In this document: positions 2,177 to 16,669 of the stretch, in pieces | How positions within the stretch are numbered: the first letter of the stretch is position 1 | How the letters are laid out: each line of letters starts with the position of its first letter | From: an uncultured Candidatus Poseidoniales archaeon | GTDB lineage: Archaea; Thermoplasmatota; Poseidoniia; Poseidoniales; CAYMED01 | Length of the DNA: 16,826 bases | Direction of reading: 5' to 3' | NCBI GenBank assembly: GCA_964389655.1 | Contig: CAYMED010000031.1 | Span: forward strand, 1 to 16,826 | Translations under genes and position numbers: made by a program | Notes under the pieces: generated by a model | The model's input: the letters and a program-made list of their open reading frames with translations, nothing else | Database searches by the model: none | What the model was told of the DNA's origin: nothing

Positions 2177-2826
2177 GAATGCGATCGCATCCATAAACCA
2201 CAATTTTGCCTTAATGCTGCATTTAGATGAGTCAATAAATGCCTTGATATTGTGTGGACGCCTTCCACAAGTGGTTCTTCGGCATTAACTGACCATGGGC
2301 AGGATTTCAAGCGAGCCGCTAGGTCTCTGATTTCTTGTACGTCGATCCACCCGTGTAGGCACAACCCATGGCGGCCAATATGCATCAGGTCGTCTCTTCG
2401 CATTGTAGATGTGAATCGGTGTGAAAGCAGGTCAAGATATCTGTGGATTTTTTCCGATTCGGGATCTTCAATGAGCATGTGATTTGCGAGATAATCAAGC
2501 GCATTCCCCACATTTCCAGGAAGTCTACCAATAGCTTCTCTAGCCAAATAAACATCGCTATTGAAGCGAATCCGGTCAATTTCATCATCGCTAGGCCGTC
2601 CCACAATGAATGCTGCAGTGGCAGGATCAGGGACTTGATGGCGGTCCATTATAGCCACACTCATCCTCTCTGCACGCTGAACTAGAATCTCAGGTGCACG
2701 ATCATCAAAACTATTCTCAGAAATCCAATGATCCATTTCAATCAAGTATTCTGGCCGACATGGCTCAAGTGTAGTCCAAGCAATTGCAGAAGGATCTATT
2801 TCGATAGGCTCCTCATCATTCAACAC
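2173..2826 (-). CDS. Hypothetical soluble protein, 217 aa, translationally coupled to the upstream large surface protein
   Basis: Intact ORF with protein-like composition; its ATG overlaps the last 11 nt of the 1862-aa gene. No family recognised. Confidence 0.75.
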   Translation of the reverse strand: MLNDEEPIEIDPSAIAWTTLEPCRPEYLIEMDHWISENSFDDRAPEILVQRAERMSVAIMDRHQVPDPATAAFIVGRPSDDEIDRIRFNSDVYLAREAIGRLPGNVGNALDYLANHMLIEDPESEKIHRYLDLLSHRFTSTMRRDDLMHIGRHGLCLHGWIDVQEIRDLAARLKSCPWSVNAEEPLVEGVHTISRHLLTHLNAALRQNCGLWMRSHS

Positions 2827-5800
2827 GTTTCCTCCGAGCCTCCCGTCGTGCAGTCATGGCCTCAATTCTTTGGTCCAAATCGTCTGTAGGTTTCTGGCGA
2901 TCTAGGTGCTCCCGTAAATCATCCAACAAAGGTTCTTCTTTGCCTGGTTTAGGTACTTCTTCCTTGTTGATCTGATCCTCAGAATCGCTCACTTGCCTAC
3001 CATCAATGCTCGTAATGCGTTCTTGCTTCTCGACTTCAGTGTTTGAGGCAGAATCGGTCATATTTTCATCACTCTCTTGGTCCTCTCGATTTCTCTGAAA
3101 TAAAATCCAAGCCAATGCTAGGATTGTGAGGGCACTTATTGTACCCGAGATTACACGTGCATCGATGGTTAATGCAAGAGATAAACTGCTCTTTGGCACC
3201 CAATTGATTGTACTTGCGTCATCACTCGGATCGTCATCGACATCCCAAGGTGAGGCGCATGAAATTCGCACTTCAATCGTTGTATTACTCATTGTAGATG
3301 GAGGCTGGATTTGTATGGGGAGTAGGAATTGCGCAGTCAAGTCAATATCCCATGAATAGGATAATTTATCTGATGTCAGGCTAATTTGGCAATCAGCCTG
3401 AATTGGGGGACGGATCCCTTCGCGCAGGGGTAGTATCTCAATTCCACCTTCAACAGAATCTACGCGCAATATTCCGATATTCCAGCCAGTTTGGTGGATC
3501 ATCCAAATGGCTTCTTTCTGAATTATAAGTCGTCCCCACTCATCGACTACAGTTAGTTCGGTCTGATGTCCTCCAGCAGGAACTTGCGACACTTCTTCTG
3601 AAGGAATAGTTACATTCTGGTATCCCTTAAATGCAGGTGATAATATTCTTGAATATACGGCCCCATCAATTCTGAAAATCATCGTCCATGCACTTGGTGC
3701 ATCGGTTGAAGTACATCTTGCAGGGCTTGCAGTTGCATTCCAGTTTTCATTGATTTCACAGAATATCTCAAAATCAGGTTTTGCAATAGGGACGACAATG
3801 AGGTCAAGTTTTCCAATATCGCTTGCTAGATTGGTCAGGCTGACTTCTAATATGTCAAGGCGTGTTGCCGGTTTCCAAACAAATCCAGTACCCTCTACCT
3901 TTAGGGATTCGGTTCCTATTATGGCAGTGCTCAGTTCAGTGGCAGAATCGGTGTTTAGGCCAACCATCGAAAAACCATTTGCATAGACAAGGGGCTTTTC
4001 TGCCCACCCAATCGCTCGCCGCTCGATTCTGATGGGTACTGTAGGTGATGTGAGGTTACTTGATTTGGCTCGAATGAGTAATTCTGCAGGTGTCCCATCC
4101 CAGTTGGCGGGTGTGGTGATTCCGCATGATGCTGGCCTTATTTCGCCAGCACCTACCCAGCCAATAAAGGGATTCTCCATGCTCCAGTTGGCAACATCTA
4201 CGAATTCTAATGAAACCTCTTTGCCCACATTTCCATTATTGTGGACCGCAAGAGTAGGGCATTCGCCTCCATTCTCTCCTATGACCCACGTGGATGCAAT
4301 TACCTCTAGGGATGGTGCTTCGTCAACAATTAGTAGGACAATTGTGGATGTAACCGTTGATGTTTCAACATCATCAATAATGATGTCAAGTTCTCCAATT
4401 GAACCCGCTATTGTGCCGACTTTAGGGTGGATATTTACGGAAATGGTAACATTTCCTCCGGGATCTATTGTATCGGGGAATTGTGTCAAATTGGTCTGAT
4501 TCCACCCCGCTGACCTAGGAAACCCAAGAGTGACGATTGGAGTTGTAGGTCTATTTCCTAGTTGCTCTAGTCGAAGGTGGATTTGTTCCCCGTTAGGGTT
4601 GATTGTGGGGTCCGATGCTTGGACCGACCATCCAGTTCTATGCTTAATGACAATTTCAATGGATAAACTGGGAGATGCTGCCGTGTCATCCGCTATTGTC
4701 AAGTTAATCGAGCAACGTGTCCCTGCCCAAGAATTTGAGGGCACAGACCAATTTAGCACAATAATAGCTGTTGAATTGACATCCGCTTCATCACTAGGGC
4801 TGATGGATGCCACGCAAGGGCTCGTAGGTGCACGTTCAGGGTAATCCATCTGTATATACAAGGAAGCAGTAGGAGATAGTCGATGATTTCCCTGATTAAG
4901 TACCTCAATTGAGAGTGTTCCAAAACTTCCAGGCTCGATCAAAAGTGCATCTGGTAGTGTTGTTGCATTCCACCGTCGTATCGGATTGGCAGAGACATTG
5001 AGCTGAACAATGGAAAATGCAGAAGAATCCTCAGTACTTTTGAGGGTGATTTCGAGTGGTATGGCTTCTAGAGCTGGTGTTGAAGGGTCTAGTTCGACAA
5101 TCATGGTGACACTTGTTGCAGCACCAGATTGGATTTGATGCGAGGAGTCTGGAAATGTTACTTGAACATACTCAGAATGTAATGGCTGGACTGTGACTGA
5201 TGTAAGCAAGTAATCATCTGCACTATTACCTGGGTTAACCGCATCAAGGACAAAAGTGCGAGGTGTTTCAACATCCATGTATTCCACGGGTGAAGGATGC
5301 GTAGGCCATTCTAACAATGCACGATGTATTTGAAGCACATCGAGATGAAGGTATATGTCGCATGAATCTCCTAGGGAGCACCTTAGGCGGAGATCGTGAT
5401 TTCCAGGTGGTTCTCGAATTGGAAGGCTGAGTTTCAATGTACCTTCTAGTCGCCCATCTGGTGAATTTCCAGATAAGTTAGCACCTAGGGTGAAATCTTG
5501 GGTTGCAGTCCACGTCCATCCAGATGCAATTGTCTCGGACATGTCCCAATTCGCATTTGTTGACCCATTTGGGAGTGCTGCAATGATGGACCAAGATGCT
5601 TCCTTCGGTGTTGTTCGAATATGCGGAGGGCTAGTTGTAGTATCATGGACTGTAAAACGGAGGTCAACTGTGGAGTTGATGCTTCCATTGTCATCTGACC
5701 GAGCAGTCAATGGAATCGTGATTGAATCGCCAATTGGCTGATTTTCGGGTATGGATACGACGGCGATTAGTTCAACAGCAGAAGCAGGCTGTACTATGAT

Positions 5801-8404
5801 GCTTGCAATTTCAGTCCCATTTTCGAGAAGTTGGACGCGCCCAGTATTCCAAGGGTTTGCTCCTTTCACAAATAGAATGTTTTCAGGAGCATTGCCGAGG
5901 TTTGAGAGTCTTAACCAAGCCTGAGCACTTTCTGAATCCCTCCCTAGTCCCTCTGCGACTACAGATCCATGAGCTCCTATGATGTGCAAGCCCCGTGTCC
6001 GATTTACCGCTAGAGGCCAGGTTACAGATGCAAAGGCAGTTCCATCTTCATGTATCAATGTCAGTCCCAAGTTCATCGCAGATCCCCCTTGTGCTTCATT
6101 GGGTGAAGTGACTCGAATTCTGATGCCCACATTTTTTCCAGGATCTAGCCTGGTTGTTAGGGGATCAAGTGCTTGAACGGACCACCCCGGTTCAACAGTA
6201 GACGTGTCCCAATTTAGGGTCCAGTTGCCGGATCGCTTCCCTGTTGCAAGTAAGTTGATCATTTCCGTCCTCGCGGCACCAGGGTCAACAAGTGTAAGGG
6301 TGGGTGCTGAAATCGATGCCTCAAAAGGTACGCGGACTGTGATGTTGGTGCGTAAAATATCCTCCGACCGGCGCGCTTGTGTGAGGTTTCCTGATGGGTC
6401 AATATGCAATTCGATTTGATGGATTCCAATTGTGGCGGTCCAATCTATGCTAACAGTTACTGGAGAACCATCTCCGGAGGGTGCAACTGGGTCAAGGATA
6501 GGTATGAGTTCTTCAATGAGCATATTCCCATCGATAATGACGCGTACATCGATGGGCCGATCTGACGAAACAGTGCCAATATTCTCAACTTCTGCGACAA
6601 TTGTGACTTGTTGTCCAGGGTCGGGCGCTTCAGGTACCATTCGTATTCCGGAACCGTCTTTAGTAGGTCGAATATCTGCAATTGCTCGGCCGATAACCTG
6701 TGCGCCAATGGCTATGTCTAGTGCACCATCTCCATCGACGTCAGCAGTCGCAGGTGATGCAACACTTGATTGTGGTGTTTCAAGGGGTTCACTCCAACCA
6801 GATGAACCTGGAATGTCATCTCCATCATCACCTTCATATGCGTGAATACGCCGATCATATGCGACAATGAGTTCGGGATCATCATCTCCGTCGAGATCTT
6901 GCCAAGTGGGTGCACTTGTCGCAATTCCTTCGCGAAGGACACCTGTGTGGTCAATTGTGCGGGTCCATTGCTCCACCGGCTGGCCTGTGTCGGTGTCATG
7001 GCAGCCTACCAAGGCTCGACGCTGGGCAATTCCTGGAATAAACCAGGTGATGTAGCAGATGCGATCTATTGCCCCATCCCTGTCTCGGTCGATCACAAGA
7101 GGTGGTGCATCTGCCCAGCCATTGTCTACCTCAAATCGCCACTCTTCACTTCGGTCTACAAGATTTTTCAGGACAAATTCTGCACCGTCAGATCCCCCAT
7201 TACCATCGCCATCGGTTGGCAGTGTGAATAGAACTTCTAATAATTCATCATCATCCATGTTGGCAATAATAGGTGATGGAAGGCGTAGGTGGGGTGAGCG
7301 TGTATCTCCATCTTGCGCCTCTAAACTTGTTCGGTCCCAAAGTAATCCACCATCATTTCCATCAATCCTCCATGCCCACATCGACCCACTATCTGAATCG
7401 AGTGTTGTGAGGAGTGCAGAGGCTCCGGCACCTGCAGCGTTAGGTGCAATGGCTGGATCTGAAATATGGGTTCCTCTGTCCAAATCAGCACTCCAGAGAG
7501 GGGCAGTGGGTAGATCCATCGAAAGTTCTAGTGCAAGAACTCGTAACCTTCCTACATCGGGTGCTCGCCCAGCAACCAAAAGGTCAGATGTCCCTGAACC
7601 ATCCAAGTCTGCAATGGCTAGTTGTGCTTGTACATGGTCACTCGACGATCCAAATAGGGCGTCTGCAGAGTCAATTGAGAGTCGCATCCCTTCATCAGCA
7701 TATGACCAGATCTGTTCATTTGAGTGGCCTCCCGTAACCCATCCAGAAGGTCCACATCTCAACTGAGGTGTCCAAGCTTCAATCACTAGCCCCGTAGATC
7801 CATCGTAAGCAGTGATTATCTCGAGTGCAGCATCTGCATTGATGTCTACTCCTATGGGTGCTGTGAGTACTCGCCCAGTCGCATCTAGATTTGCTGACCA
7901 AGCAAGGTCACCTGACCACGCATTAATCAGTGCTAATCGATATTCATCCCCGCTGTTATCTCCGGATTTTTCTAAAATGGTGGCAATAAATAATTCCCCT
8001 TTCCCACAACGCTCTTCCGCTCCTGAATCAATATCTGAATTTCCTTGGAGATCAACTAGAATTGCTTCAAGGGGTGTTGAGGCCCCCATGGATGAATCAT
8101 CGATTGACCAGCGGATGGCAGGAGAATCTATGACTGCTAGATCTCCCCCCGGGAAGCCCTCTATACTGTCTGTTTTCACACTAGGGTCATGTGCTGGGAC
8201 CTCTGCGGTTCGAGTTGCACTCTTCCCGGCCTGCATCCATGTTGTGGAAGTATGGTGTGAACGAGATGAAGCAGGTGTGTGTTTTTGGTCCTCGAAGTTA
8301 GAATATGGTGCTCTTTCTTCGTCTGCACACGACAGCCATGGCACTTGTGATGACAGGCATAACAGAAGCAGCACCACGACGGCCTGCGATCCCTTCGGCA
8401 TCAT
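2816..8404 (-). CDS. Large secreted, C-terminally membrane-anchored surface protein: FG-GAP/VCBS-like calcium-blade beta-propeller, CARDB domain and tandem Ig-like repeats
   Basis: N-terminal hydrophobic signal (AVVVLLLLCLSS). Repeated Dx[DN]xDG-type loops (DINADAALEI, DLDGSGTSDL, NMDDDELLEV, DRDRDGAIDRI, DLDGDDDPEL, DVDGDGALDI). CARDB-like PDPGQQVTIVAEVENIGT. Recurrent NxGN Ig-type motifs (NLGNAPE, NPGNSADDY, NQGNHR, NNGNVG). TM helix VISGTISALTILALAWILF followed by a charged tail. Confidence 0.85.
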   Translation of the reverse strand: MMPKGSQAVVVLLLLCLSSQVPWLSCADEERAPYSNFEDQKHTPASSRSHHTSTTWMQAGKSATRTAEVPAHDPSVKTDSIEGFPGGDLAVIDSPAIRWSIDDSSMGASTPLEAILVDLQGNSDIDSGAEERCGKGELFIATILEKSGDNSGDEYRLALINAWSGDLAWSANLDATGRVLTAPIGVDINADAALEIITAYDGSTGLVIEAWTPQLRCGPSGWVTGGHSNEQIWSYADEGMRLSIDSADALFGSSSDHVQAQLAIADLDGSGTSDLLVAGRAPDVGRLRVLALELSMDLPTAPLWSADLDRGTHISDPAIAPNAAGAGASALLTTLDSDSGSMWAWRIDGNDGGLLWDRTSLEAQDGDTRSPHLRLPSPIIANMDDDELLEVLFTLPTDGDGNGGSDGAEFVLKNLVDRSEEWRFEVDNGWADAPPLVIDRDRDGAIDRICYITWFIPGIAQRRALVGCHDTDTGQPVEQWTRTIDHTGVLREGIATSAPTWQDLDGDDDPELIVAYDRRIHAYEGDDGDDIPGSSGWSEPLETPQSSVASPATADVDGDGALDIAIGAQVIGRAIADIRPTKDGSGIRMVPEAPDPGQQVTIVAEVENIGTVSSDRPIDVRVIIDGNMLIEELIPILDPVAPSGDGSPVTVSIDWTATIGIHQIELHIDPSGNLTQARRSEDILRTNITVRVPFEASISAPTLTLVDPGAARTEMINLLATGKRSGNWTLNWDTSTVEPGWSVQALDPLTTRLDPGKNVGIRIRVTSPNEAQGGSAMNLGLTLIHEDGTAFASVTWPLAVNRTRGLHIIGAHGSVVAEGLGRDSESAQAWLRLSNLGNAPENILFVKGANPWNTGRVQLLENGTEIASIIVQPASAVELIAVVSIPENQPIGDSITIPLTARSDDNGSINSTVDLRFTVHDTTTSPPHIRTTPKEASWSIIAALPNGSTNANWDMSETIASGWTWTATQDFTLGANLSGNSPDGRLEGTLKLSLPIREPPGNHDLRLRCSLGDSCDIYLHLDVLQIHRALLEWPTHPSPVEYMDVETPRTFVLDAVNPGNSADDYLLTSVTVQPLHSEYVQVTFPDSSHQIQSGAATSVTMIVELDPSTPALEAIPLEITLKSTEDSSAFSIVQLNVSANPIRRWNATTLPDALLIEPGSFGTLSIEVLNQGNHRLSPTASLYIQMDYPERAPTSPCVASISPSDEADVNSTAIIVLNWSVPSNSWAGTRCSINLTIADDTAASPSLSIEIVIKHRTGWSVQASDPTINPNGEQIHLRLEQLGNRPTTPIVTLGFPRSAGWNQTNLTQFPDTIDPGGNVTISVNIHPKVGTIAGSIGELDIIIDDVETSTVTSTIVLLIVDEAPSLEVIASTWVIGENGGECPTLAVHNNGNVGKEVSLEFVDVANWSMENPFIGWVGAGEIRPASCGITTPANWDGTPAELLIRAKSSNLTSPTVPIRIERRAIGWAEKPLVYANGFSMVGLNTDSATELSTAIIGTESLKVEGTGFVWKPATRLDILEVSLTNLASDIGKLDLIVVPIAKPDFEIFCEINENWNATASPARCTSTDAPSAWTMIFRIDGAVYSRILSPAFKGYQNVTIPSEEVSQVPAGGHQTELTVVDEWGRLIIQKEAIWMIHQTGWNIGILRVDSVEGGIEILPLREGIRPPIQADCQISLTSDKLSYSWDIDLTAQFLLPIQIQPPSTMSNTTIEVRISCASPWDVDDDPSDDASTINWVPKSSLSLALTIDARVISGTISALTILALAWILFQRNREDQESDENMTDSASNTEVEKQERITSIDGRQVSDSEDQINKEEVPKPGKEEPLLDDLREHLDRQKPTDDLDQRIEAMTARREARRKRVE

Positions 8405-8488
8405 TTCCTGTAGTATTGCTCATTCGGAGCCCTTTGAACGTTGTTAAGTTCCAGCGTCCTACACCCCCCAATCTAGGTTCCTGCAGTG

Positions 8489-8503
8489 CGAACCGCTAAA
8501 TAT
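8489..8503 (+). promoter_or_regulatory. Putative archaeal BRE/TATA promoter for the rpoE1 operon
   Basis: CGAACCG followed by CTAAATAT (8496-8503), about 20-25 nt upstream of the start of the structured leader (8526). Based on position and consensus resemblance only. Confidence 0.45.
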
Positions 8504-8525
8504 TCCGTGCCATCCGGCGAACAAC

Positions 8526-8614
8526 TGTCACCTCCTCTCGCGAGGCTTAGCCGATGACGGATAGGGGGCGTGTCCCGCGCCCTATTTGTGTGAGGTTGGG
8601 AGGGTGGCGAGGAG
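8526..8614 (+). ncRNA. Candidate cis-regulatory structured leader RNA (three-way junction plus kink-turn-like internal loop)
   Basis: Manual fold: P1 8526-8533/8602-8609; P2 CCUC-UCGC-GAGG 8534-8545; P3 8546-8552/8594-8600; internal loop GAUGA 8553-8557/UGUGA 8589-8593; P4 8558-8570/8576-8588 with one G.G mismatch. Many G-U pairs favour the + strand. Confidence 0.55.
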
Positions 8615-8624
8615 CGATGAAGAG

Positions 8625-9224
8625 ATGTATTTGGAAGTCATCAGGGAGGATGTCATACGCATTCCTCCCGAATATTTGCGCCGTGGCTCGTCATTTGGCG
8701 ACCACATTGATCGATTAGCCTCTCGTGCTTTTGAGGGGTCATTTGATGAGGATGACCGTTTAATCGTGGTGACTTATGACCATGAGAGCATCGGGAGGGG
8801 GCGCATCATTCATGGCGATGGCGCGATTTACCAACCGGTACGATTCAAAGCGATCCTGTTTGAGATAGGGGAATCAGAAGTAGTGGAAGGCGCTGTCTCA
8901 GAGGTCCACGAGTTTGGAGCATTTGTCCGTATTGGCCCTCTTGAAGCCTTGCTACACGTATCACAAATCATGGATGAACGAGTACGGGTAAATATCGATC
9001 GGCGCAAGAGTCGCACAGATGATGGGCGAATTGACGATTATAGTCGGGTAGAGGGTTTGGATTCGGGAAAGTTTGTTCAAACAACAGACCCGGTGCGCGC
9101 ACGAATCGTGCAGGTTTCCTTGAATACCTCTGATCCTCGCTCATCAAAAATTGGTCTCACATGTAAGCAACCTGGACTTGGTCCTCTTTCCTGGCTTGGT
9201 GAAACGCAAGAGGAGGATGGTTGA
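8625..9224 (+). CDS. rpoE1: DNA-directed RNA polymerase subunit E' (Rpo7)
   Basis: MYLEVIREDVIRIPP, GRIIHGDGAIYQPVRF, EVVEGAVSEVHEFGAFVRIGPLEALLHVSQIMD (S1 domain), KIGLTCKQPGLGPLSWL. Start moved to ATG 8625, which has GAGGAG at 8609-8614; the ORF-track TTG 8586 lies inside the RNA leader. Confidence 0.97.
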   Translation: MYLEVIREDVIRIPPEYLRRGSSFGDHIDRLASRAFEGSFDEDDRLIVVTYDHESIGRGRIIHGDGAIYQPVRFKAILFEIGESEVVEGAVSEVHEFGAFVRIGPLEALLHVSQIMDERVRVNIDRRKSRTDDGRIDDYSRVEGLDSGKFVQTTDPVRARIVQVSLNTSDPRSSKIGLTCKQPGLGPLSWLGETQEEDG

Positions 9225-9226
9225 TC

Positions 9227-9424
9227 ATGGTCAAAATCCCTTTTGCATGTAGCGAGTGCCACCGTATTCTCCCCGAGGATGATTGTCATCAACATCCCGG
9301 TGCTTTGACAACGACTGATTGGCAAGGTTATGTTGTCGTTCTAGATCCAAACAGGTCAGATATCGGGCAGCGACTAAATCTCTCCCAGCGCGGCACTTAT
9401 GCCCTGAAGGTGAATATACGTTGA
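9227..9424 (+). CDS. spt4: Transcription elongation factor Spt4 (RpoE'')
   Basis: ACSECHRIL...CHQH zinc site, TTDWQGYVVVLDP..S.I, GTYALKV. AGGAGG at 9211-9216; canonical position after rpoE1. Confidence 0.95.
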   Translation: MVKIPFACSECHRILPEDDCHQHPGALTTTDWQGYVVVLDPNRSDIGQRLNLSQRGTYALKVNIR

Positions 9425-9434
9425 GGTGTATGTC

Positions 9435-9797
9435 ATGCTGATCGATATCCTAGACCGCCGTGAAAATCCTCTTCTTGAGCGAATCGAAATTCGTTTTCGA
9501 ATTTCCCATGACGGCGAACCCACTCCTTCGCGTAGGGCCATGTGTGATCTAATTTCATCACTGGAACCCGGTAGCAAATCATCTCTTGTTATCTTGCGAG
9601 ATGTTGGAACGAGGTTTGGCCGTGCTCAAACCACTGGATTTGGCATGATTTATGCAAATGAAGCTGCCTCTTTGAAAGAATCAGCCTATGTACGTGCACG
9701 TTTTTCACTTGAATCTAGCGACACACCTGAAAGTACTGCTAAAAATCCTGCACCAACTCCTAAAGTGGTTCCTGAAGAGGAGGCTGAGGAAGAATGA
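9435..9797 (+). CDS. rps24e: 30S ribosomal protein S24e (eS24)
   Basis: [48 protein letters not shown] at 9423-9428 before ATG 9435. Confidence 0.95.
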
Positions 9798-9973
9798 GTG
9801 ATGGTCCGAATCCACGTGCAAAATGGTCGAAATACGCGATAGAAGGTGGAAACTTAATCAGAAAAGGCACAGTATGCCCACAATGTGGGCCTGGTGTTTT
9901 CCTTGCAAATCATGCAGATCGCAAATCATGTGGCCGTTGTGGCTATACGTCTACAGATGCCTCATTAGAGTAA
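9794..9973 (+). CDS. rps27ae: 30S ribosomal protein S27ae (eS31), 59 aa; absent from the ORF track
   Basis: Manual translation: [59 protein letters not shown]. Carries the [13 protein letters not shown].DR..CGRCGYT signature. ATGA overlap with the rps24e stop. Confidence 0.97.
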
Positions 9974-10894
9974 TGCCTCTCTCTTGTCCCACTTGCCCGT
10001 GTTATCTAAGATATGTATGCTGTTGCTTTCGTCCACACAGATCCCTATTGGGAGATCTTGAACAGCGTCACTTTTGACCTCATCTGCGGATATTTGGATG
10101 ATTGACCGCCACGCAGCGACCCACCAGACCCCATTTACATGGATGGCATCATGTATGCGTCCAGAACTTTCAATTTCCGTGTGTGACCCATCAGGAGTGA
10201 GTGAATGAATAACTCCATCGTCACAAGATAATACCCATCCTACCTCATTATTCCCCCAAGCACCGATAAGACGTGTGGGGAGTTTGTGGACCCCCTTAGC
10301 GACGACCTCACCCTCAAGGTCAATGTCGATCCATCCGCCCCCTGCAGACCATAGACGAGACGTACTTGATGATGCAGTGCCTGCAACGATGTCAGATCCA
10401 TTAGGTATGCCTGATAATTTTTCCCAACGGGGAAGTGGGGTGCGCCATATTTCCCCGCCTAGGTGATCAATGGCGTATATTCCCGACCCCTCAAGGCTAA
10501 ACACAATTTGTCCTGAGCATGCCGTAAGGCTAAGGGGTAGGCGGTCAATCGCTTTTGACCACATTGCACCAGCAACATGAGGGATGGGGAGAGTTCGTGA
10601 AGACCACCAAATGCGCAAGTCTGCCAATTCGATGCCATCCTCAAATTCCTCCGCCAAATCCATAGATGCCATTCTTCCAATCCCTATTTCACGCTCAATC
10701 CAAGTGCCCACTATGCTGTTTCCACTCAACACGGAAAGCGTAATTTCCCCTGGAAATGGTCTTCTAAAGACTCCAATTGGCTTGGTATTTGATGGTTCAG
10801 TAAGTTGGATGTGGCCATCGGAATAAAGCACAGCAATTGCACGGCCTTCGCTGTCTTTGAGGAGGGTTGAGGGGATCGGGCTTCCACTCTTCAC
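9965..10894 (-). CDS. Hypothetical protein, likely beta-propeller (PQQ/WD-like repeats)
   Basis: 309-aa ORF, Trp/Gly-rich beta-strand pattern, including [17 protein letters not shown] and [12 protein letters not shown]; no signal peptide seen. Confidence 0.65.
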
Positions 10895-10968
10895 ATTCCT
10901 TTGAGTTCGATCACAGGCATGAATGCTATCCTCACAAGACCCATGTGTGATGCCTTGTACGGTAGACC

Positions 10969-11925
10969 ATGGTTACTCTTCTCATCGTCTCAGAAGGCGA
11001 TGTGGCCTCGACAAACCTCCGCGACCGGTTACTTGAACGCATTGAGATGGCGATTGTTGGGGAGGTTGAAGGGCGGGTTGTGTTCGGATGCCAAAAAATT
11101 CGGATGTGGAGTGTTTCTGATAGTGCCCTCTTTGAGGACAAAATCGATCGTCGTTACTCAGAAGCGACAGGTGAATCAATTACTGATGCCATTTTCCTTT
11201 CACGTCACAGCGCAGCATCAGGGCGGCCATGCCTTAGCATTCACCCAATCGGTCTTTTGAACCCACTTGCAGAGCCTAAATTTGGTGGACGTCCTGGTCG
11301 CTTACCCCCTCCTAATCTTCGCATATCAGCATGGATTCGGTGGCTGGGTGAAGTTACTTCTCATCGAAAGTCAGGGAAGCTGGCATGGGATGTCTCACTT
11401 GAAGCAACACATCATGGCCCTTGGCTAGATACTCCCTCCATGTTTGTCGAAATTGGTTCTACAGAAGCGGAATGGGTCGACCCTGAACCCGCTCGAATTT
11501 GGGCAGAGGTTCTCGCCATAGGCCTAGGCCTTGAACCAATACCGCCTTGGGCTTCTCGCGATCTCGTTGAAAACTGCATTTCTCCTTTGTCACAAAAGGG
11601 TCCCATCGTACTTTGCATTGGGGGTGGTCACTACGCACCTAGACATGCAGACATGGTTCACCGAACAGGTAGCCTCCTTGGGCACATAATCCCGGGCTGG
11701 GCTTTTTCTGAAATGAAAAACCCAGATGACTGGATTTTCCCAATTCGCAGCGCTCTTGAATCGACTCGATTAGCAGCAGGAGGGCGTGAAATAGTGGTGC
11801 ATTTAGACCGCAAGTCCTTTCGCTCATCCGAAAGGCAGCATATCGTGTCATTATGTGCGTCATTAGGTCTTCTTGTTGTGAGAAGCAGGGACCTCTTGAA
11901 TCACGACTCTGACACGCAACCATGA
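10969..11925 (+). CDS. dtdA: D-aminoacyl-tRNA deacylase, archaeal/plant DTD2 (GEK1) type
   Basis: D.AS.N, IFLSRH, LSIHPIG, SLEATHHGP, FVEIGSTEAEW, IGGGHYAP and GHIIP motifs. Confidence 0.93.
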   Translation: MVTLLIVSEGDVASTNLRDRLLERIEMAIVGEVEGRVVFGCQKIRMWSVSDSALFEDKIDRRYSEATGESITDAIFLSRHSAASGRPCLSIHPIGLLNPLAEPKFGGRPGRLPPPNLRISAWIRWLGEVTSHRKSGKLAWDVSLEATHHGPWLDTPSMFVEIGSTEAEWVDPEPARIWAEVLAIGLGLEPIPPWASRDLVENCISPLSQKGPIVLCIGGGHYAPRHADMVHRTGSLLGHIIPGWAFSEMKNPDDWIFPIRSALESTRLAAGGREIVVHLDRKSFRSSERQHIVSLCASLGLLVVRSRDLLNHDSDTQP

Positions 11926-11959
11926 AGCGACGTCTGCTTTCTGTGCAGTTGGTCTCGCC

Positions 11960-12934
11960 ATGGGTATCGTAGATCGCCTCGTCCTGCTGATGGTTCGAAT
12001 CAGCCCGCGTTTTGTTATACGATGGGTCAGCAGACGCTATATCGCTGGTGTAGATATTGATGCTGCATCGCGCACCATCCGAAGGTTACAAAGTCAAGGC
12101 TGCTGCGCTACTCTTGATGTCCTTGGAGAAGAGATTCAATCGATTGATGAAGTATCCTTTTTTGAGTCCGAATATCAAATGGCCTTACAGAGAATCATAG
12201 ACGATGATCTTGATGCAAATCTTTCAATCAAGCCTACCGCTTTTGGTCTCCTGATTGATGAAGTGTATGCGAGAGAAAAAATTACTGCACTGACTGCAGC
12301 AGCGGGAGACCATCATATTCATGTTCGCTTGGATATGGAAGACCATCGAGTTACTGATGGCACAATTCGCATCTTGAAGCACATTCAAGAGGCAGGGTAT
12401 TCGAATATTGGAATTGTATTACAGGGCCGCTTATTTCGAACAGCCGAAGATATTCAATCACTGACGGAGGAGTTAGGCGCATATGCTGACTTTCGAATAT
12501 GCAAGGGAATTTATCTCGAGCCAGCCGAAATCGCCCATACGGGGCATGCCCAGATTGTGGATGCCACATGTGAGGCAATCGACGCTGCATTAGCAGCAGG
12601 CGCATATGTTGGCATTGCAACACACGATGATAAAATTGTTGAATCTACTCGCAAAAGCCTTTCCCGGCATGGGTTAGGGCCAAGTTATGAGGATAAGCGA
12701 AAGAATGCCCCTCCCTCTCGAAAGGGAAAGGGACCGGGATACGAATATCAGATGTTACTCGGCGTACGCGGAGAACTTCGCCGCGCATTAGTTGCGGAAG
12801 GCCATCGGGTACGCATTTACATCCCATATGGAAAGCAATGGTATGAGTATTCTATGAGACGTCTGCGTGAAAACCCCACAATAGCCCGACATATCCTCAA
12901 GGCGTTCTTTTTGCCTTGGAAGAATCGCCCCTAA
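11960..12934 (+). CDS. Monofunctional (bacterial-type) FAD-dependent proline dehydrogenase
   Basis: RYIAG, TLDVLGE, SIKPT, RLDMED, RICKGIYLEP, IATHD, EYQMLLG, RIYIPYG..WY.Y..RRL.ENP. Confidence 0.93.
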   Translation: MGIVDRLVLLMVRISPRFVIRWVSRRYIAGVDIDAASRTIRRLQSQGCCATLDVLGEEIQSIDEVSFFESEYQMALQRIIDDDLDANLSIKPTAFGLLIDEVYAREKITALTAAAGDHHIHVRLDMEDHRVTDGTIRILKHIQEAGYSNIGIVLQGRLFRTAEDIQSLTEELGAYADFRICKGIYLEPAEIAHTGHAQIVDATCEAIDAALAAGAYVGIATHDDKIVESTRKSLSRHGLGPSYEDKRKNAPPSRKGKGPGYEYQMLLGVRGELRRALVAEGHRVRIYIPYGKQWYEYSMRRLRENPTIARHILKAFFLPWKNRP

Positions 12935-13590
12935 GCAACTCTTTTTTCTCTTGGGAGTCGGTGAAGAAAAAGACGTCGGACTTTTCGTGCTTTCATCTTT
13001 CCACCAAGGATCCTTCCTCGACCGGAATGAATGGCGCGAACCCACCAGGTCCCTCGATCCGTTTCTATGGGCGCATCTGCTTCAAAAACATCATCTGGAT
13101 CAACCACCCAAACTTCAGATTCAGAATGATCGTAGTCGGTGAAAGTGACTCGAACTCGAGCAATATCTGTCCTGCGTGCCCATAACGATCGAATTTCATG
13201 TGCAACTGCTTTTTGCACATCACCTGAGGGGATTTCAATTCTTGTTATTTCCCATCGTTTCCCATCGAGACCGAATTCATCTCTCACAAATAATTCTTCA
13301 TCGATGTCGACTTCGATAGTGGATCGTGTTGATGTTCGGTCATCCGAGAGTATGACTCGAATGTTGCGTGCAGGAGGTGGCCTGAGTTCAATGACATGCA
13401 CGCTATTGCAAGAGGTGCATTGTGCGCGTATATTAACGCCTTTTCCGATATTTTTCTCTCCAAGCAGATCGTGGATCGTTGACTCAGCACACATTGGGCA
13501 AGCATATAGCACATCTTCTTCAACCTCAACGAGCCCATCCTGAAGATCATCAGTTGATTCCACGAGCATTCCGGGAGGGCCATCGTTCAT
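12931..13590 (-). CDS. Archaeal Zn-finger protein (HVO_0476/COG1326-like); start may be ATG 13569
   Basis: CPMC...HDLL...AQCTSCNSVH N-terminal zinc ribbon, then VILSDD..S, ITRIE, A.EI..LWA and a duplicated beta-rich module ending A..VRRLF. Confidence 0.8.
   Translation of the reverse strand: MNDGPPGMLVESTDDLQDGLVEVEEDVLYACPMCAESTIHDLLGEKNIGKGVNIRAQCTSCNSVHVIELRPPPARNIRVILSDDRTSTRSTIEVDIDEELFVRDEFGLDGKRWEITRIEIPSGDVQKAVAHEIRSLWARRTDIARVRVTFTDYDHSESEVWVVDPDDVFEADAPIETDRGTWWVRAIHSGRGRILGGKMKARKVRRLFLHRLPREKRVA
12942..12947 (+). terminator. Possible archaeal oligo-T terminator after the proline dehydrogenase gene
   Basis: T6 run 7 nt after the TAA stop, embedded in the convergent CDS. Confidence 0.3.
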
Positions 13591-13608
13591 GACCCTGACC
13601 GTCGCGCC

Positions 13609-14331
13609 ATGCTCATGGACGATGGATTGCCAAGCGTCGACACGGCTTTGTCCTCCCTCCTTTCTAGACGCCTAGACATTCCAGCAGAGGAGCCTCAAAT
13701 AGCGCAAGCCATTGCAGTGCAAGGCAGCCATATGGAACTGCGTTTGTTACCTCTCGAGATTCGCTGCCGAATTAGGGATGCAATCTCTCGATTCAACCCC
13801 AATGTGCTTGTAGAAGTTGGTAGTGGCATAGGAGTACTTAGTGCATGGATGTTGGATCATTTTCACTCCACTCCTGAATCGGCACCAGATGCCTATTACC
13901 TTGTTGAAGGCGGTCCTAAATTTGCAGTAATATTGACGCGCCTTCTTCAACGCTATCAAACACCTAAATGGTCCCATATTCTTGTTGGCCGATTTGAATC
14001 AATCATCGCTGAATCACGTGCGGCGCATGCAGTTGGTTCAGCAGATTTAGGAACTCTCCTCCCCAAGGAAGTAGATGCTGTAATTGTCGATGTAGGTTTA
14101 TCATCACTTGCAGATTGCGTCAGGTCCGGTTTAGACCTTCTTGCACCAGGTGGCCTACTATTGTGTGCTGAACCAGAAACACCTACCGATGTCACACCAG
14201 CTGATGATCCTTCAATTGGCGACTTTCAGAGGTGGATGGACCTAGTGCGAGATGAACACGAGCGCCGTCCAGTTGCCTTTGTGCCACTAGAAGGGGGAAC
14301 ATTGGTGGCGATGATCGGCACCTCACCCTGA
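13609..14331 (+). CDS. Class I SAM-dependent methyltransferase (O-methyltransferase-like)
   Basis: Motif I VLVEVGSGIG, acidic post-II YLVEG, VDAVIVD and LLAPGGLLL. Confidence 0.8.
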   Translation: MLMDDGLPSVDTALSSLLSRRLDIPAEEPQIAQAIAVQGSHMELRLLPLEIRCRIRDAISRFNPNVLVEVGSGIGVLSAWMLDHFHSTPESAPDAYYLVEGGPKFAVILTRLLQRYQTPKWSHILVGRFESIIAESRAAHAVGSADLGTLLPKEVDAVIVDVGLSSLADCVRSGLDLLAPGGLLLCAEPETPTDVTPADDPSIGDFQRWMDLVRDEHERRPVAFVPLEGGTLVAMIGTSP

Positions 14332-15420
14332 TGCTGCTAATAGGTCTGGAGCAGAAAGCCTTCCGTATCCCATTTCATCATCATGTGCGTCTGAACCAAG
14401 TGAGGATTCCGAGATCCATGTTTTAACCTGTTCAATGGTACTTCGACTGCCCCCATCTGTTCCACTTGGGCGGATTTCAGGATGTGCCTCTAACAAGTGG
14501 ATTAGTGCTGCAGTAACATAGACAGTTGCGGCGCTAGTTCCGTTTGCAACCCCCCATTCTTGACCCCATATGACTGGAACTTGTGCTGCGGGTGCAACGA
14601 TTTCCGGCTTTTTGTCAGGGTCACTGCGAGCAGCTCTTGGAGGAAATAGGCGCCATCCATTTGAACCGGAGTTACTAGCCGGCCAATGTGATCCATCTGC
14701 TTCAACCCCCCCAACACAAATGACGTCTTCAATCCCTCCGGGATGTGCAACATCATCCCCGTCAGATGTTCCACCTTCATTGCCTGCAGCGGCTATCACA
14801 AAGATGCCTGCACTCAACGCATCTTCTATGGCGCTCACACTTTCATCTCCGCCGAACAGTGCTGGTATGATGTTTTCAGCACCGCCAAGGCTTAGACTGA
14901 TCAGGTCTACTTTCTCATCAATACACCACTCTATCCCGTCTGCTAGCATTGAATCTGTTGCATTCCCATCAGCAGCAAGTGCTTTGACAATATTGAGGTT
15001 TACCTCCTTGGCAAGCCCATGGAATCCCCCATTGGCCACTAGAATGCCCGCCATTGCCGTACCATGGCCTTGGTCATCGTAAGGGGTGGTCTGTTCATTG
15101 ACAAGGTCTTTCCAGTCTACAACTGAAATGTGATCTAAATCGGGATGGGATAAATCAATTCCAGTATCGATGATGCAAACTTCAATCCCATGCCCTGTAG
15201 GCATATTTTCCACATCAAAACCAACTAATTCAGCATACATGTTCGCTCTTTCGACAAGAGATGGGGGTGGTGATTTCCCAGATGCCTCGGAAGCAAATAA
15301 GTGTCCCAGCCACCACATGGCGGTCAAGACCAAAACTGCAATCCCGACCGATAAGATACCTGTTAGCCGTGAATCAAAACGTTGCCCTGTAGTAGGGGGT
15401 GGTGCATGTTCTAATTCCAC
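14323..15420 (-). CDS. Membrane-anchored subtilisin-family (S8) serine protease
   Basis: Triad Asp (IIDTGID), His (DQGHGTAMAG), Ser (NGTSAAT); oxyanion AAAGNEG; KPEIVAP; MGYGRL. N-terminal TM ILSVGIAVLVLTAMWWL. Start reassigned to GTG 15420, with GGTGA overlapping the upstream stop. Confidence 0.92.
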   Translation of the reverse strand: MELEHAPPPTTGQRFDSRLTGILSVGIAVLVLTAMWWLGHLFASEASGKSPPPSLVERANMYAELVGFDVENMPTGHGIEVCIIDTGIDLSHPDLDHISVVDWKDLVNEQTTPYDDQGHGTAMAGILVANGGFHGLAKEVNLNIVKALAADGNATDSMLADGIEWCIDEKVDLISLSLGGAENIIPALFGGDESVSAIEDALSAGIFVIAAAGNEGGTSDGDDVAHPGGIEDVICVGGVEADGSHWPASNSGSNGWRLFPPRAARSDPDKKPEIVAPAAQVPVIWGQEWGVANGTSAATVYVTAALIHLLEAHPEIRPSGTDGGSRSTIEQVKTWISESSLGSDAHDDEMGYGRLSAPDLLAASG

Positions 15421-15424
15421 GTCT

Positions 15425-16549
15425 TCACCATGCGTCGATGTTTGGTAGATGATCTGAAACAGGGCTTGATACACCACATCCCTTGCAAAGGAATCTTCTT
15501 GTGATTTCCGTATCGCAAAGGGGGCAGGATCTCCCCACGGTTCCTCTTCCATCACAGTCACTGACTGTGCAAGGTGCCTCAATTGCACCATCTTTTGCCC
15601 TTCCAACCGCCGATGGGGCATTGCAAGATGGGCATTTCCCATCTTTCATCTCTCGTGCTTCAAGTCCTGCCATCACTCGCCCAACTTGACGGGACCGGTC
15701 CGTTTCGATGCGGTCAGTCGCGGACCCAAGAAGAAGTTGGGGGTACCAAAGGATCACCATGAGTGCTGCGATTGATGCAAGATTCAAGATCAGGTGTATG
15801 GCAAGTGCGATGATAGAGCCATGTGGACGATATGCGATATGGAGCGTACCTGCCCATGATCCCAGTACTATGAATCCAGCCCAAGCGATCAGTATTGTAG
15901 TCCAACCTCTCAAGCTGTGGTCCTGTTTTGCCTCCATTATGTGTCGGGGGTCTGGGTCAGCATGCTCGGATTCAAGGTGAATATCTCTTGTTTCGCTGAC
16001 GGCTCTATGGAACATTGACATGACGAAGGAGAGCGAGAACAGCGACAAGAGGAGTACGACAATCCCTGAACCTGAAACTGAGAATGGGAATGCTGGGGCA
16101 AGTGCATGTGCATAAGCAAATCCAACTTGCACACCCCCCCACATTGCGACAATTAGAATGGCATGCCCGCGTAGTAAAGGAAAGAGGAGCCACAAACTGC
16201 TGATGAACCATGCCCACAAACTAAGGGATACAATCCATTGAACCACCGAGGCTGGTTGTGCACTAAAAATGCCTTTCCACCCTACAACCGATGTGTTTCC
16301 CCCTCCCCAAATTTCACCTGTAAGATCGATAGAACCAATCAATACGGCAAGGGAGCCAATGATCACTGTACGATAATGGGGGGCTCCCCATGTGCGCAAT
16401 AGGAGTTCAAGCATGTGTGATAGTTCGACACGAATATTTTCCAAAAACTGCCACTTTTGTCCTACATCTCGGCCTTCTTTCGAGGATAGCCGAGGCAGGT
16501 GATCTGCATCGTCGGCAGCGGCCTCAGCGGCCAGCGCGTTCTCGGACAT
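15425..16549 (-). CDS. Polytopic membrane protein (~6 TM) with C-terminal double zinc ribbon
   Basis: About six hydrophobic segments; C-terminus carries CPSC, CTVSDC, CPLC and CKGC (8 Cys); His/acidic loop ETRDIHLESEHADPDPRH...DHSL. Confidence 0.8.
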   Translation of the reverse strand: MSENALAAEAAADDADHLPRLSSKEGRDVGQKWQFLENIRVELSHMLELLLRTWGAPHYRTVIIGSLAVLIGSIDLTGEIWGGGNTSVVGWKGIFSAQPASVVQWIVSLSLWAWFISSLWLLFPLLRGHAILIVAMWGGVQVGFAYAHALAPAFPFSVSGSGIVVLLLSLFSLSFVMSMFHRAVSETRDIHLESEHADPDPRHIMEAKQDHSLRGWTTILIAWAGFIVLGSWAGTLHIAYRPHGSIIALAIHLILNLASIAALMVILWYPQLLLGSATDRIETDRSRQVGRVMAGLEAREMKDGKCPSCNAPSAVGRAKDGAIEAPCTVSDCDGRGTVGRSCPLCDTEITRRFLCKGCGVSSPVSDHLPNIDAW

Positions 16550-16597: not shown

Positions 16598-16669
16598 AGC
16601 CACTGATGGGAATCGAACCCACGACCTACGCCTTACCAAGGCGTCGCTCTACCCCTGAGCCACAGTGGC
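16598..16669 (-). tRNA. tRNA-Thr (GGT), no intron, CCA not encoded
   Basis: Reverse complement GCCACTG-TG-GCTC-AGGGGTA-GAGC-G-ACGCC-TTGGTAA-GGCGT-AGGTC-GTGGG-TTCGATT-CCCAT-CAGTGGC-T; full cloverleaf of 72 nt with U discriminator. Confidence 0.97.

Follow-up and report, generated by a model that had tools for sequence, protein, structure and literature searches.

To our knowledge, few cis-regulatory RNAs are known in archaea. The closest described relatives of the element treated here, a structured RNA in the leader of the rpoE1 operon of an uncultured Poseidoniales archaeon, are kink-turns (K-turns) of archaeal mRNA leaders that are bound by the protein L7Ae. A K-turn stem-loop in the 5' untranslated region of the l7ae mRNA allows L7Ae to repress that mRNA, and the protein binds other mRNAs too (Daume et al. 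2017, PMC5539422). It reads the bases G1b and G2n of K-turns, essentially all of which fold on L7Ae binding, and C:G at -1b:-1n is a common natural form of the motif (Huang, Ashraf and Lilley 2019, PMC6298567). In Sulfolobus acidocaldarius, where L7Ae-bound mRNAs were collected by RNA immunoprecipitation sequencing (RIP-seq), K-turns of non-l7ae mRNAs lowered reporter output when L7Ae was made; rpoE, spt4, S24e and S27ae are not mentioned in that study (PMC5539422). Literature searches found no paper linking Poseidoniales or the rpoE1 operon to a K-turn leader.

The DNA analysed here (the window, 16,826 nt) is a complete contig, CAYMED010000031.1, of a 2.1-Mb genome (G000). A preceding interpretation made from its letters alone (the sequence-only reading) had placed an undescribed structured leader RNA with a K-turn ahead of the rpoE1 operon, and order-wide conservation together with the lack of a corresponding Rfam family upholds this proposal. 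The leader is real, so far undescribed, and conserved across Poseidoniales. As judged from sequence comparison, its conserved core is very probably, as a selected structure, a standard K-turn stem-loop at 8531-8568 on the + strand, with the non-bulged strand first. We favour, with some reservation, the reading that the leader is an L7Ae-responsive element which would switch conformation and thereby change access to the Shine-Dalgarno (SD) sequence GAGGAG at 8609-8614 (+ strand, read from the sequence), 10 nt ahead of the rpoE1 ATG at 8625.

Like the l7ae autoregulatory K-turn (PMC5539422; PMC6298567), the rpoE1 element is a stem-loop, of a predicted mRNA leader, with a 3-nt bulge (often GAU) and a predicted tandem G.A/A.G, and its terminal loop lies on the canonical (C) helix, an arrangement shared by half of the published examples. 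The rpoE1 element differs in preceding an operon for the RNA polymerase stalk, Spt4, eS24 and eS31, in having C:G at -1b:-1n, which occurs in none of six published l7ae leaders, and in its long non-canonical (NC) helix with a fixed mismatch. The l7ae K-turn overlaps SD and AUG of l7ae, whereas the rpoE1 stem-loop, in front of another gene, ends at 8568, about 40 nt upstream of the SD and clear of both ribosome-binding site and start codon. With its end 41 nt ahead of position 8609, direct occlusion is impossible, and the competing hairpin described below implies an indirect switch instead. The class, L7Ae-type K-turns in archaeal mRNA leaders, is known; new are the operon, the order-wide occurrence, the remoteness from the ribosome-binding site and the pairing with a competitor helix. 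The S. acidocaldarius mRNAs are comparable as K-turns outside l7ae, but come from one species and from unrelated genes (DNA-binding protein, glycosyltransferase), while the rpoE1 element is order-wide (PMC5539422).

Other K-turn and leader RNAs resemble the element in part. Archaeal C/D small RNAs (sRNAs) have nearly the same letters in their box C'/D' (CNGA ... NNUGANG corresponds to box D' and box C'), but the rpoE1 element lies in a predicted mRNA leader and has neither a terminal C/D motif nor guide spacing. The 5' stem-loop of U4 small nuclear RNA, GCC-AAU-GA-GG / CC-GA-GGC, is the rpoE1 motif circularly permuted: the loop caps the NC helix in U4 and the C helix in the rpoE1 element. Bacterial r-protein leaders (S15, L10, L20) and yeast L30 are likewise structured leaders bound by excess ribosome-associated protein, tuning translation. 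They differ from the rpoE1 leader, whose presumed regulator is encoded elsewhere, so that this would be cross-regulation, and whose motif is a generic K-turn rather than the mimic of one rRNA site; short-motif genome scans for rRNA mimicry returned common words only.

Kink-turn stem-loop of the rpoE1 leader

The stem-loop starts with a pyrimidine tract (8531-8540), the non-bulged strand of the NC helix (13n-4n), which pairs with the purine, bulged strand (4b-13b) at 8559-8568. Between the two strands follow 3n (C, 8541), which varies freely among relatives, G2n and A1n (8542-8543), the C helix as a mini-hairpin GGC-UUA-GCC (8544-8546 with 8550-8552, loop 8547-8549), the bulge L1-L3 (GAU, 8553-8555), G1b and A2b (8556-8557), and 3b (C, 8558). 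The GA dinucleotides 8542-8543 and 8556-8557 are expected to form a tandem G.A/A.G, of sheared geometry if modelled correctly. The arrangement is that of a K-turn in each part: a 3-nt bulge is followed by G and A on the same strand (NNU-GA in 79 of 79 leaders; 8553-8557 in the window), the GA of the opposite strand adjoins the C helix, with GGC immediately after it, the C helix is Watson-Crick paired at the bulge by two invariant G-C pairs and a covarying third, and an NC helix extends beyond the G.A pairs (positions 4-6 and 8-10 paired in 66-67 of 67 distinct sequences).

These counts come from relatives that DNA comparison alone does not reach. DNA BLAST of the leader against 60 relatives gave one 20-nt exact match only, the leader being too diverged for BLAST, and rpoE1 was therefore located by protein in the 60 relatives and the DNA upstream of it inspected. 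In all, 79 leaders (67 distinct sequences, 17 genera) with a median length of about 101 nt were aligned, the gap-poor alignment A1 being that of the 67 distinct sequences. The same order of blocks stands behind the TATA box in all relatives inspected except one, the genome G001 discussed below: pyrimidine tract (CUCUCCUCC or CUUCUCUCC), N, GA, GGC, a loop of 3-5 nt, GCC, NNU, GA, N, GGACGG.

Both GA dinucleotides, the two bulge-adjacent G-C pairs and U at L3 are invariant in the 79 leaders. The -1b:-1n pair at the bulge is C:G in all of them, with U:G in one g20 variant. L1-L2 vary (GA, AA, AG, GG, UG, CA), and the 3b:3n combination is unconserved, being C.C in the window and G.G, G.A, A.C, A.A, A.U or U.U elsewhere. 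On the aligned sequences, this pattern of conservation is the one expected of a K-turn.

The helices are kept by compensatory change. In A1, 88.2% of cells are paired, a share that drops to 42-62% once the 3' partners have been slid 1-3 columns along, and none of 500 shuffles matches the observed pairing, double changes or covariation score. NC positions 5, 6, 8, 9 and 10 are paired in 67/67 sequences and position 4 in 66/67, the exception being G.G in the window. Position 10 is U-A in 42 sequences and C-G in 25, and unpaired in none; positions 8 and 9 alternate among C-G, U-G and U-A, and position 11 is C-G in the genera g16 and g23. The third pair of the C helix is CG in 53 sequences, UA in three, UG in two and GC in one, and further GGU...ACC forms were met in a pattern scan of the order's genomes. 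RNAalifold, run on plain MAFFT alignments of full leaders made free of structural guidance, returned the K-turn stem-loop, mini-hairpin included, in both family sets, f2 and f3, which have the window sequence as their only common member; besides it, the output held a small 5' hairpin in f3 and nothing more. Among the sequencing runs listed for the stretch none was of RNA; contigs from three marine DNA runs cover it without differences, a fourth run gave no contig there, and no within-lineage variation was obtained.

Two side features of the leaders may be mentioned. NC position 7 (A1 columns 14 and 41; window 8537 and 8562) is mismatched in 79/79 leaders, as C.C, C.U, A.C or U.C; this constant mismatch may keep the K-turn stem-loop weak enough to switch. 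The f3 leaders (L013-L033, L036-L059, L080-L092) start with a predicted GAC-UUCG-GUC or GAC-UACG-GUC hairpin (UNCG) just 5' of the pyrimidine tract, which is absent from the f2 leaders and the window.

The element is distributed through the order as a single copy. A strict pattern, scanned in 401 Poseidoniales genomes, is present in 355 of them, and the genera that fail it (g20, g23) hold variants that still pair. Extra matches to the strict pattern were set aside as chance, lying inside open reading frames (ORFs) and lacking a pyrimidine tract. In each of the 105 genomes sampled from the two large families, f2 and f3, a covariance model of 48 core positions (R1) has a single strong match, which invariably lies immediately upstream of rpoE1. 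The model finds no second copy in any genome searched, and nothing in f4 and f5, sister families within the same class (45 genomes), in G001, in l7ae leaders or in sister-order loci. In the sister lineage (L137-L141; f4, f5), rpoE1 lies 50-60 nt behind an H+-pyrophosphatase-like gene, and the spacer contains the promoter, with neither long leader nor K-turn. A scan of the whole genome for generic K-turn hairpins gave nine matches, versus ten in the reversed control, and is uninformative.

The family of the window, f1, consists of this genome and one other of the same genus (G001). A protein-seeded search for closer relatives of the lineage returned distant archaea only (e.g., Iainarchaeia, Nanohaloarchaea), and the RpoE1 relatives P0002-P0004 are 67-71% identical. 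No known RNA family corresponds to the leader, as the sequence-only reading had supposed: Rfam 15 gave no match at threshold at 8400-8700, and at E up to 0.1 it gave none in the leaders of four relatives or in two l7ae leaders.

L7Ae as probable ligand, and the competing hairpin

L7Ae is encoded on contig C1 of the window's genome and retains the recognition-helix motif SNEVTKAAERG, of which N, E, K and R are named in PMC6298567. The recognition bases G1b, G2n and L3 = U are all present in the rpoE1 leader. The l7ae leaders of the order (L093 1795-1852 on contig C1, minus strand; L096-L124) have a K-turn of the form ACAY-GA-GGA-loop-UCC-RAU-GA-GUGU, in the same strand order as the rpoE1 element. 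The SD lies in its non-bulged strand and the AUG in its bulge, an arrangement that fits the published L7Ae autoregulation as far as sequence can tell (PMC5539422; PMC6298567). The sequence-only reading had already linked the leader with L7Ae, and the signature of L7Ae-family sites, shared in the same polarity with the l7ae leaders, makes L7Ae the most plausible ligand; L7Ae probably binds the K-turn of the rpoE1 leader. As a separate observation, position 2n is A rather than G in the l7ae leader that belongs to the window's genome and in L118.

The hairpin P4 (8557-8589), which is part of the minimum free energy (MFE) fold of the window, uses the purine strand of the NC helix as its own 5' strand, and the K-turn stem-loop and P4 are therefore mutually exclusive. 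Nearly all leaders are predicted to tie up the purine strand in a hairpin, its register being one of three non-homologous ones according to clade: GGACGG with YCGUCC, GAGGGA with UUCCUC, and GUGAAGG with CCUUCAC. Compensatory change is obvious in the distal part of the hairpin, and its stability has a mean z of -1.8 against shuffles of the downstream 43 nt. In fold predictions for the window, the purine-rich 3' segment at 8590-8608, which supplies the 3' strands of the helices P3 and P1, pairs with 8527-8552 in the protein-free state and with the freed 3' strand of P4 when the K-turn is enforced.

Enforcing the K-turn lowers the mean predicted unpaired probability of the SD from 0.40 to 0.18. 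The decrease holds for 65 of the 79 leaders and, at genus level, for 15 of 17, where a Wilcoxon test on the genus means gives p = 0.005. The pyrimidine-rich strands that are freed tend to pair with the SD, a striking case being L025, where CUUCCUCCG stands against CGGAGGAAG.

From these predictions we infer a course of events in which free L7Ae would capture the K-turn stem-loop, probably during RNA synthesis, and the capture would free downstream pyrimidine-rich strands complementary to SD-like sequences. Ribosome access to the rpoE1 start would then change, with repression predicted in most lineages, and output of the RNA polymerase stalk subunit, Spt4 and two small-subunit proteins would depend on how much L7Ae is left unbound by rRNA and small ribonucleoproteins (sRNPs). 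That the leader works as a translational switch is plausible on the folding models, although we would not count on it.

Several observations weigh against the L7Ae-responsive switch. The covariation amounts to few events, part of which follow the division into the two big families, and a pyrimidine and a purine strand pair readily by chance, up to 62% in the slid controls. The window copy is the weakest, with C.C at position 3, G.G at position 4 and an R1 score of 43 bits versus 50-65 for most, and its SD moves in the opposite direction, from 0.01 to 0.24 unpaired; for the window genome, the sign of regulation is therefore left uncommitted. The leader of G001 is degenerate: CUUC-GA-GGC ... GCC-GA-A-GGAC is kept, the 3-nt bulge is missing, and the loop of the C helix has a 19-nt insertion. 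This genome is 83% complete, and its rpoE1 (L005, contig C80) has CTG at the start position, GTG 9 nt upstream and an in-frame TAG, so that the locus reflects either decay or an assembly error.

Energetics also count against the switch. Under a nearest-neighbour energy model that gives no credit to G.A pairs or protein, the enforced K-turn lies on average 14.6 kcal/mol above the free ensemble (15.9 for the window). Folded alone, the nascent 5' part reaches the exact NC register for 11 of the 62 sequences folded. Binding energy alone may be insufficient, so that kinetic capture would have to be assumed; given the energy cost and the few nascent folds, protein and probably kinetic capture would be needed for the K-turn conformer to matter.

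Other accounts of the leader

The first alternative to L7Ae control is a protein-independent structured leader, serving as a 5'-terminal stability stem-loop or masking the SD in a fixed or temperature-dependent way, the K-turn bases being a structural detail. The stem-loop does lie at the predicted 5' end, with the UNCG hairpin added ahead of it in f3, and the pyrimidine tract can pair directly with the SD in the window and in genus g12. With C:G at -1b:-1n and, in the window, C at 3b, the K-turn may need nothing but metal ions to fold, by the rules given in PMC6298567. Stability alone cannot, however, explain the invariant GA dinucleotides and L3 = U, the always-mismatched position 7, or a competitor hairpin in three registers, and we consider this account improbable.

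At nearly the same low level of probability, the K-turn may be real but bound by another protein, namely L30e (the second L7Ae-family protein of the genome) or a product of the operon (eS24, eS31 or the S1 domain of Rpo7); in the latter case, the leader would follow the classical pattern of r-protein autoregulation. Control by one of the encoded proteins is usual for ribosomal-protein operons, and yeast L30 regulates its own transcript via a K-turn-like loop. A second PF01248 (L7Ae family) protein is indeed encoded on contig C18. On the other side, we know of no report of eS24 or eS31 binding to K-turns, and the bulge and pair features of the rpoE1 motif recur in the box C/D and U4 sites of L7Ae/15.5K. 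The 3-nt bulge with L3 = U, C:G at -1b:-1n and G-C at 4b:4n match the L7Ae/15.5K sites of l7ae leaders (PMC6298567), and within the Poseidoniales genomes themselves the l7ae leaders share the motif. Autoregulation by eS24 or eS31 of the operon, which the sequence-only reading had entertained, is thus left unsupported: the motif bears the signature of sites for L7Ae/15.5K, and the gene of L7Ae lies elsewhere in the genome.

A three-way junction of P1, P2 and P3, with a K-turn between P3 and P4, was the architecture first drawn for the window, and as the structure of the leader it is very unlikely. It used P3 as the C helix and GA 8592-8593 as the non-bulged strand, with a mirror UGU bulge opposite. 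The fold itself (P1, P2, P3, a 4x4 internal loop and P4) is reproduced exactly as the MFE of the 84 nt at 8526-8609 on the + strand, at -43.0 kcal/mol versus -31.1 +/- 3.5 in 200 dinucleotide shuffles (z -3.43; no shuffle as stable). The reverse complement is unremarkable (z -1.15), in line with the + orientation proposed earlier. A P1-like terminal helix recurs in family f2, where it is 69.5% paired with five pairs changed on both sides.

The junction is nevertheless specific to the window sequence, P2 and P3 being unconserved in relatives. In P2 (8534-8537 with 8542-8545), the pair 13-20 is C.A in all f2-type sequences (25/67), and on alignment A3 it fails in 24 of 25 sequences. P3 is paired in 42.8% of cells, and the two pairs closing the K-turn as first drawn occur in one of 25 sequences, the window. 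No GA follows P4 in the leaders of relatives, and 20 nt of extra context alter the MFE of the window, the pyrimidine tract then pairing with the SD region. The junction also leaves the invariant GA 8542-8543 unexplained. What survives is the assignment of GAUGA (8553-8557) to the bulged strand of a K-turn, with GA 8542-8543 inside P2, not GA 8592-8593, as the partner that is conserved; a long structured leader with a K-turn, though not the drawn junction, is conserved as well. P1 is compatible with the K-turn stem-loop, and the leader may stay multi-branched, with the K-turn stem-loop as a branch at the position of P2.

Least probable of all is a stand-alone small RNA (a C/D-box-like half-mer sRNA or an attenuator transcript) or an upstream ORF (uORF) from the AUG or GUG that all sequences have at L2-L3-1b: the motif resembles a D'/C' pair and, around the leader, the sole Rfam 15 match at E up to 10 is sR53, caused by the box-C-like GCCGAUGACG and scoring 19 bits versus a gathering score of 49, but the predicted transcript begins right at the pyrimidine tract and the variation is compensatory, not codon-like. 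As a C/D sRNA the leader was rejected on its single D'/C'-like motif, there being no upstream box C (RUGAUGA) or box D (CUGA) at the 12-nt guide distance. The attenuator and the stand-alone sRNA, the latter also raised by the sequence-only reading, were dropped since a run of at least five U ahead of the start codon occurs in no more than 6 of the 79 leaders, and the uORF was dropped for using all three frames relative to rpoE1 with variable stops. In the window, an ORF of 54 aa (8554-8718) is open from the AUG of the K-turn bulge and overlaps the rpoE1 start; its frame and length are unconserved, and it is most likely not a gene.

The operon, its surroundings and the meaning of the element

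The TATA-like box CTAAATAT (8496-8503, + strand, read from the sequence) is the putative promoter of the rpoE1 operon. It lies 44 nt upstream of 3n in the window and family f2 and 49 nt in f3; given this spacing of 44-49 nt in all families, transcription is predicted to start just 5' of the pyrimidine tract, at about 8524-8528 in the window. SD-like motifs stand at the equivalent place in the leaders of relatives, and the 16S rRNA 3' end with CACCUCC is found on contig C26 of the window's genome.

The leader is followed on the + strand by rpoE1 (RpoE'/Rpo7; 8625-9224; Pfam S1 plus SHS2_Rpb7-N), spt4 (9221-9424; Pfam Spt4), rps24e (9426-9797; Pfam Ribosomal_S24e) and rps27ae (9794-9973; Pfam Ribosomal_S27). 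The operon, TATA-like box and rpoE1 ATG were correctly read from the letters, and the promoter position proposed there fits. The order Rpo7, Spt4, S24e is identical in 29 of 29 relatives' loci checked; S27ae is next in 28, and the L007 locus ends before S27ae. Upstream of the leader, and divergent from rpoE1, lies the gene of an 1862-aa FG-GAP/CARDB protein (2816-8404, minus strand).

A G+C-rich block, GGGGTCGnnGGTsGC, is common to f2 and f3 (L006-L033) right behind the TATA box, in the promoter spacer, which is normally unconserved; from its sequence, it may be a transcription factor binding site. Its counterpart in the window (8504-8525) has diverged.

The contig opens with the final 322 nt of a 23S rRNA gene (1-322), followed by 5S rRNA (379-498), and has tRNA-Thr (GGU) at 16598-16669 on the minus strand; the 23S rRNA 3' end, 5S rRNA and tRNA-Thr are the only Rfam 15 matches at gathering thresholds in the whole window. 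Other genes identified by Pfam (542-2176 and 9965-16549) encode eIF-6, SAICAR synthetase, D-aminoacyl-tRNA deacylase, proline dehydrogenase, a CPxCG zinc-finger protein and a subtilase. For four ORFs Pfam gave no match (2173-2826, 9965-10894, 13609-14331, 15425-16549).

The uncultured Poseidoniales (Marine Group II) belong to the most abundant archaea of the plankton. In this order, an order-wide, single-copy and easily recognised element provides a concrete candidate for L7Ae action on an mRNA besides that of l7ae, and it would connect synthesis of small-subunit proteins with the RNA polymerase stalk and Spt4. It suggests that control by K-turn and L7Ae could act at a distance via alternative helices, not solely by sitting on the ribosome-binding site. 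The 48-position R1 model could seed a new Rfam family.

A more far-reaching and tentative possibility, which we hold to be rather unlikely, is a protein-sensing, riboswitch-like device with the K-turn as aptamer for free L7Ae, and with the competing hairpin and downstream segments as an expression platform that would mask or unmask the SD about 40 nt away. If this were true, L7Ae would be a trans-acting coupler of the assembly status of ribosomes and sRNPs to the RNA polymerase stalk, Spt4 and two small-subunit proteins across Marine Group II, and the leader would be part of an undescribed archaeal cross-regulatory circuit between the transcription and translation machineries.

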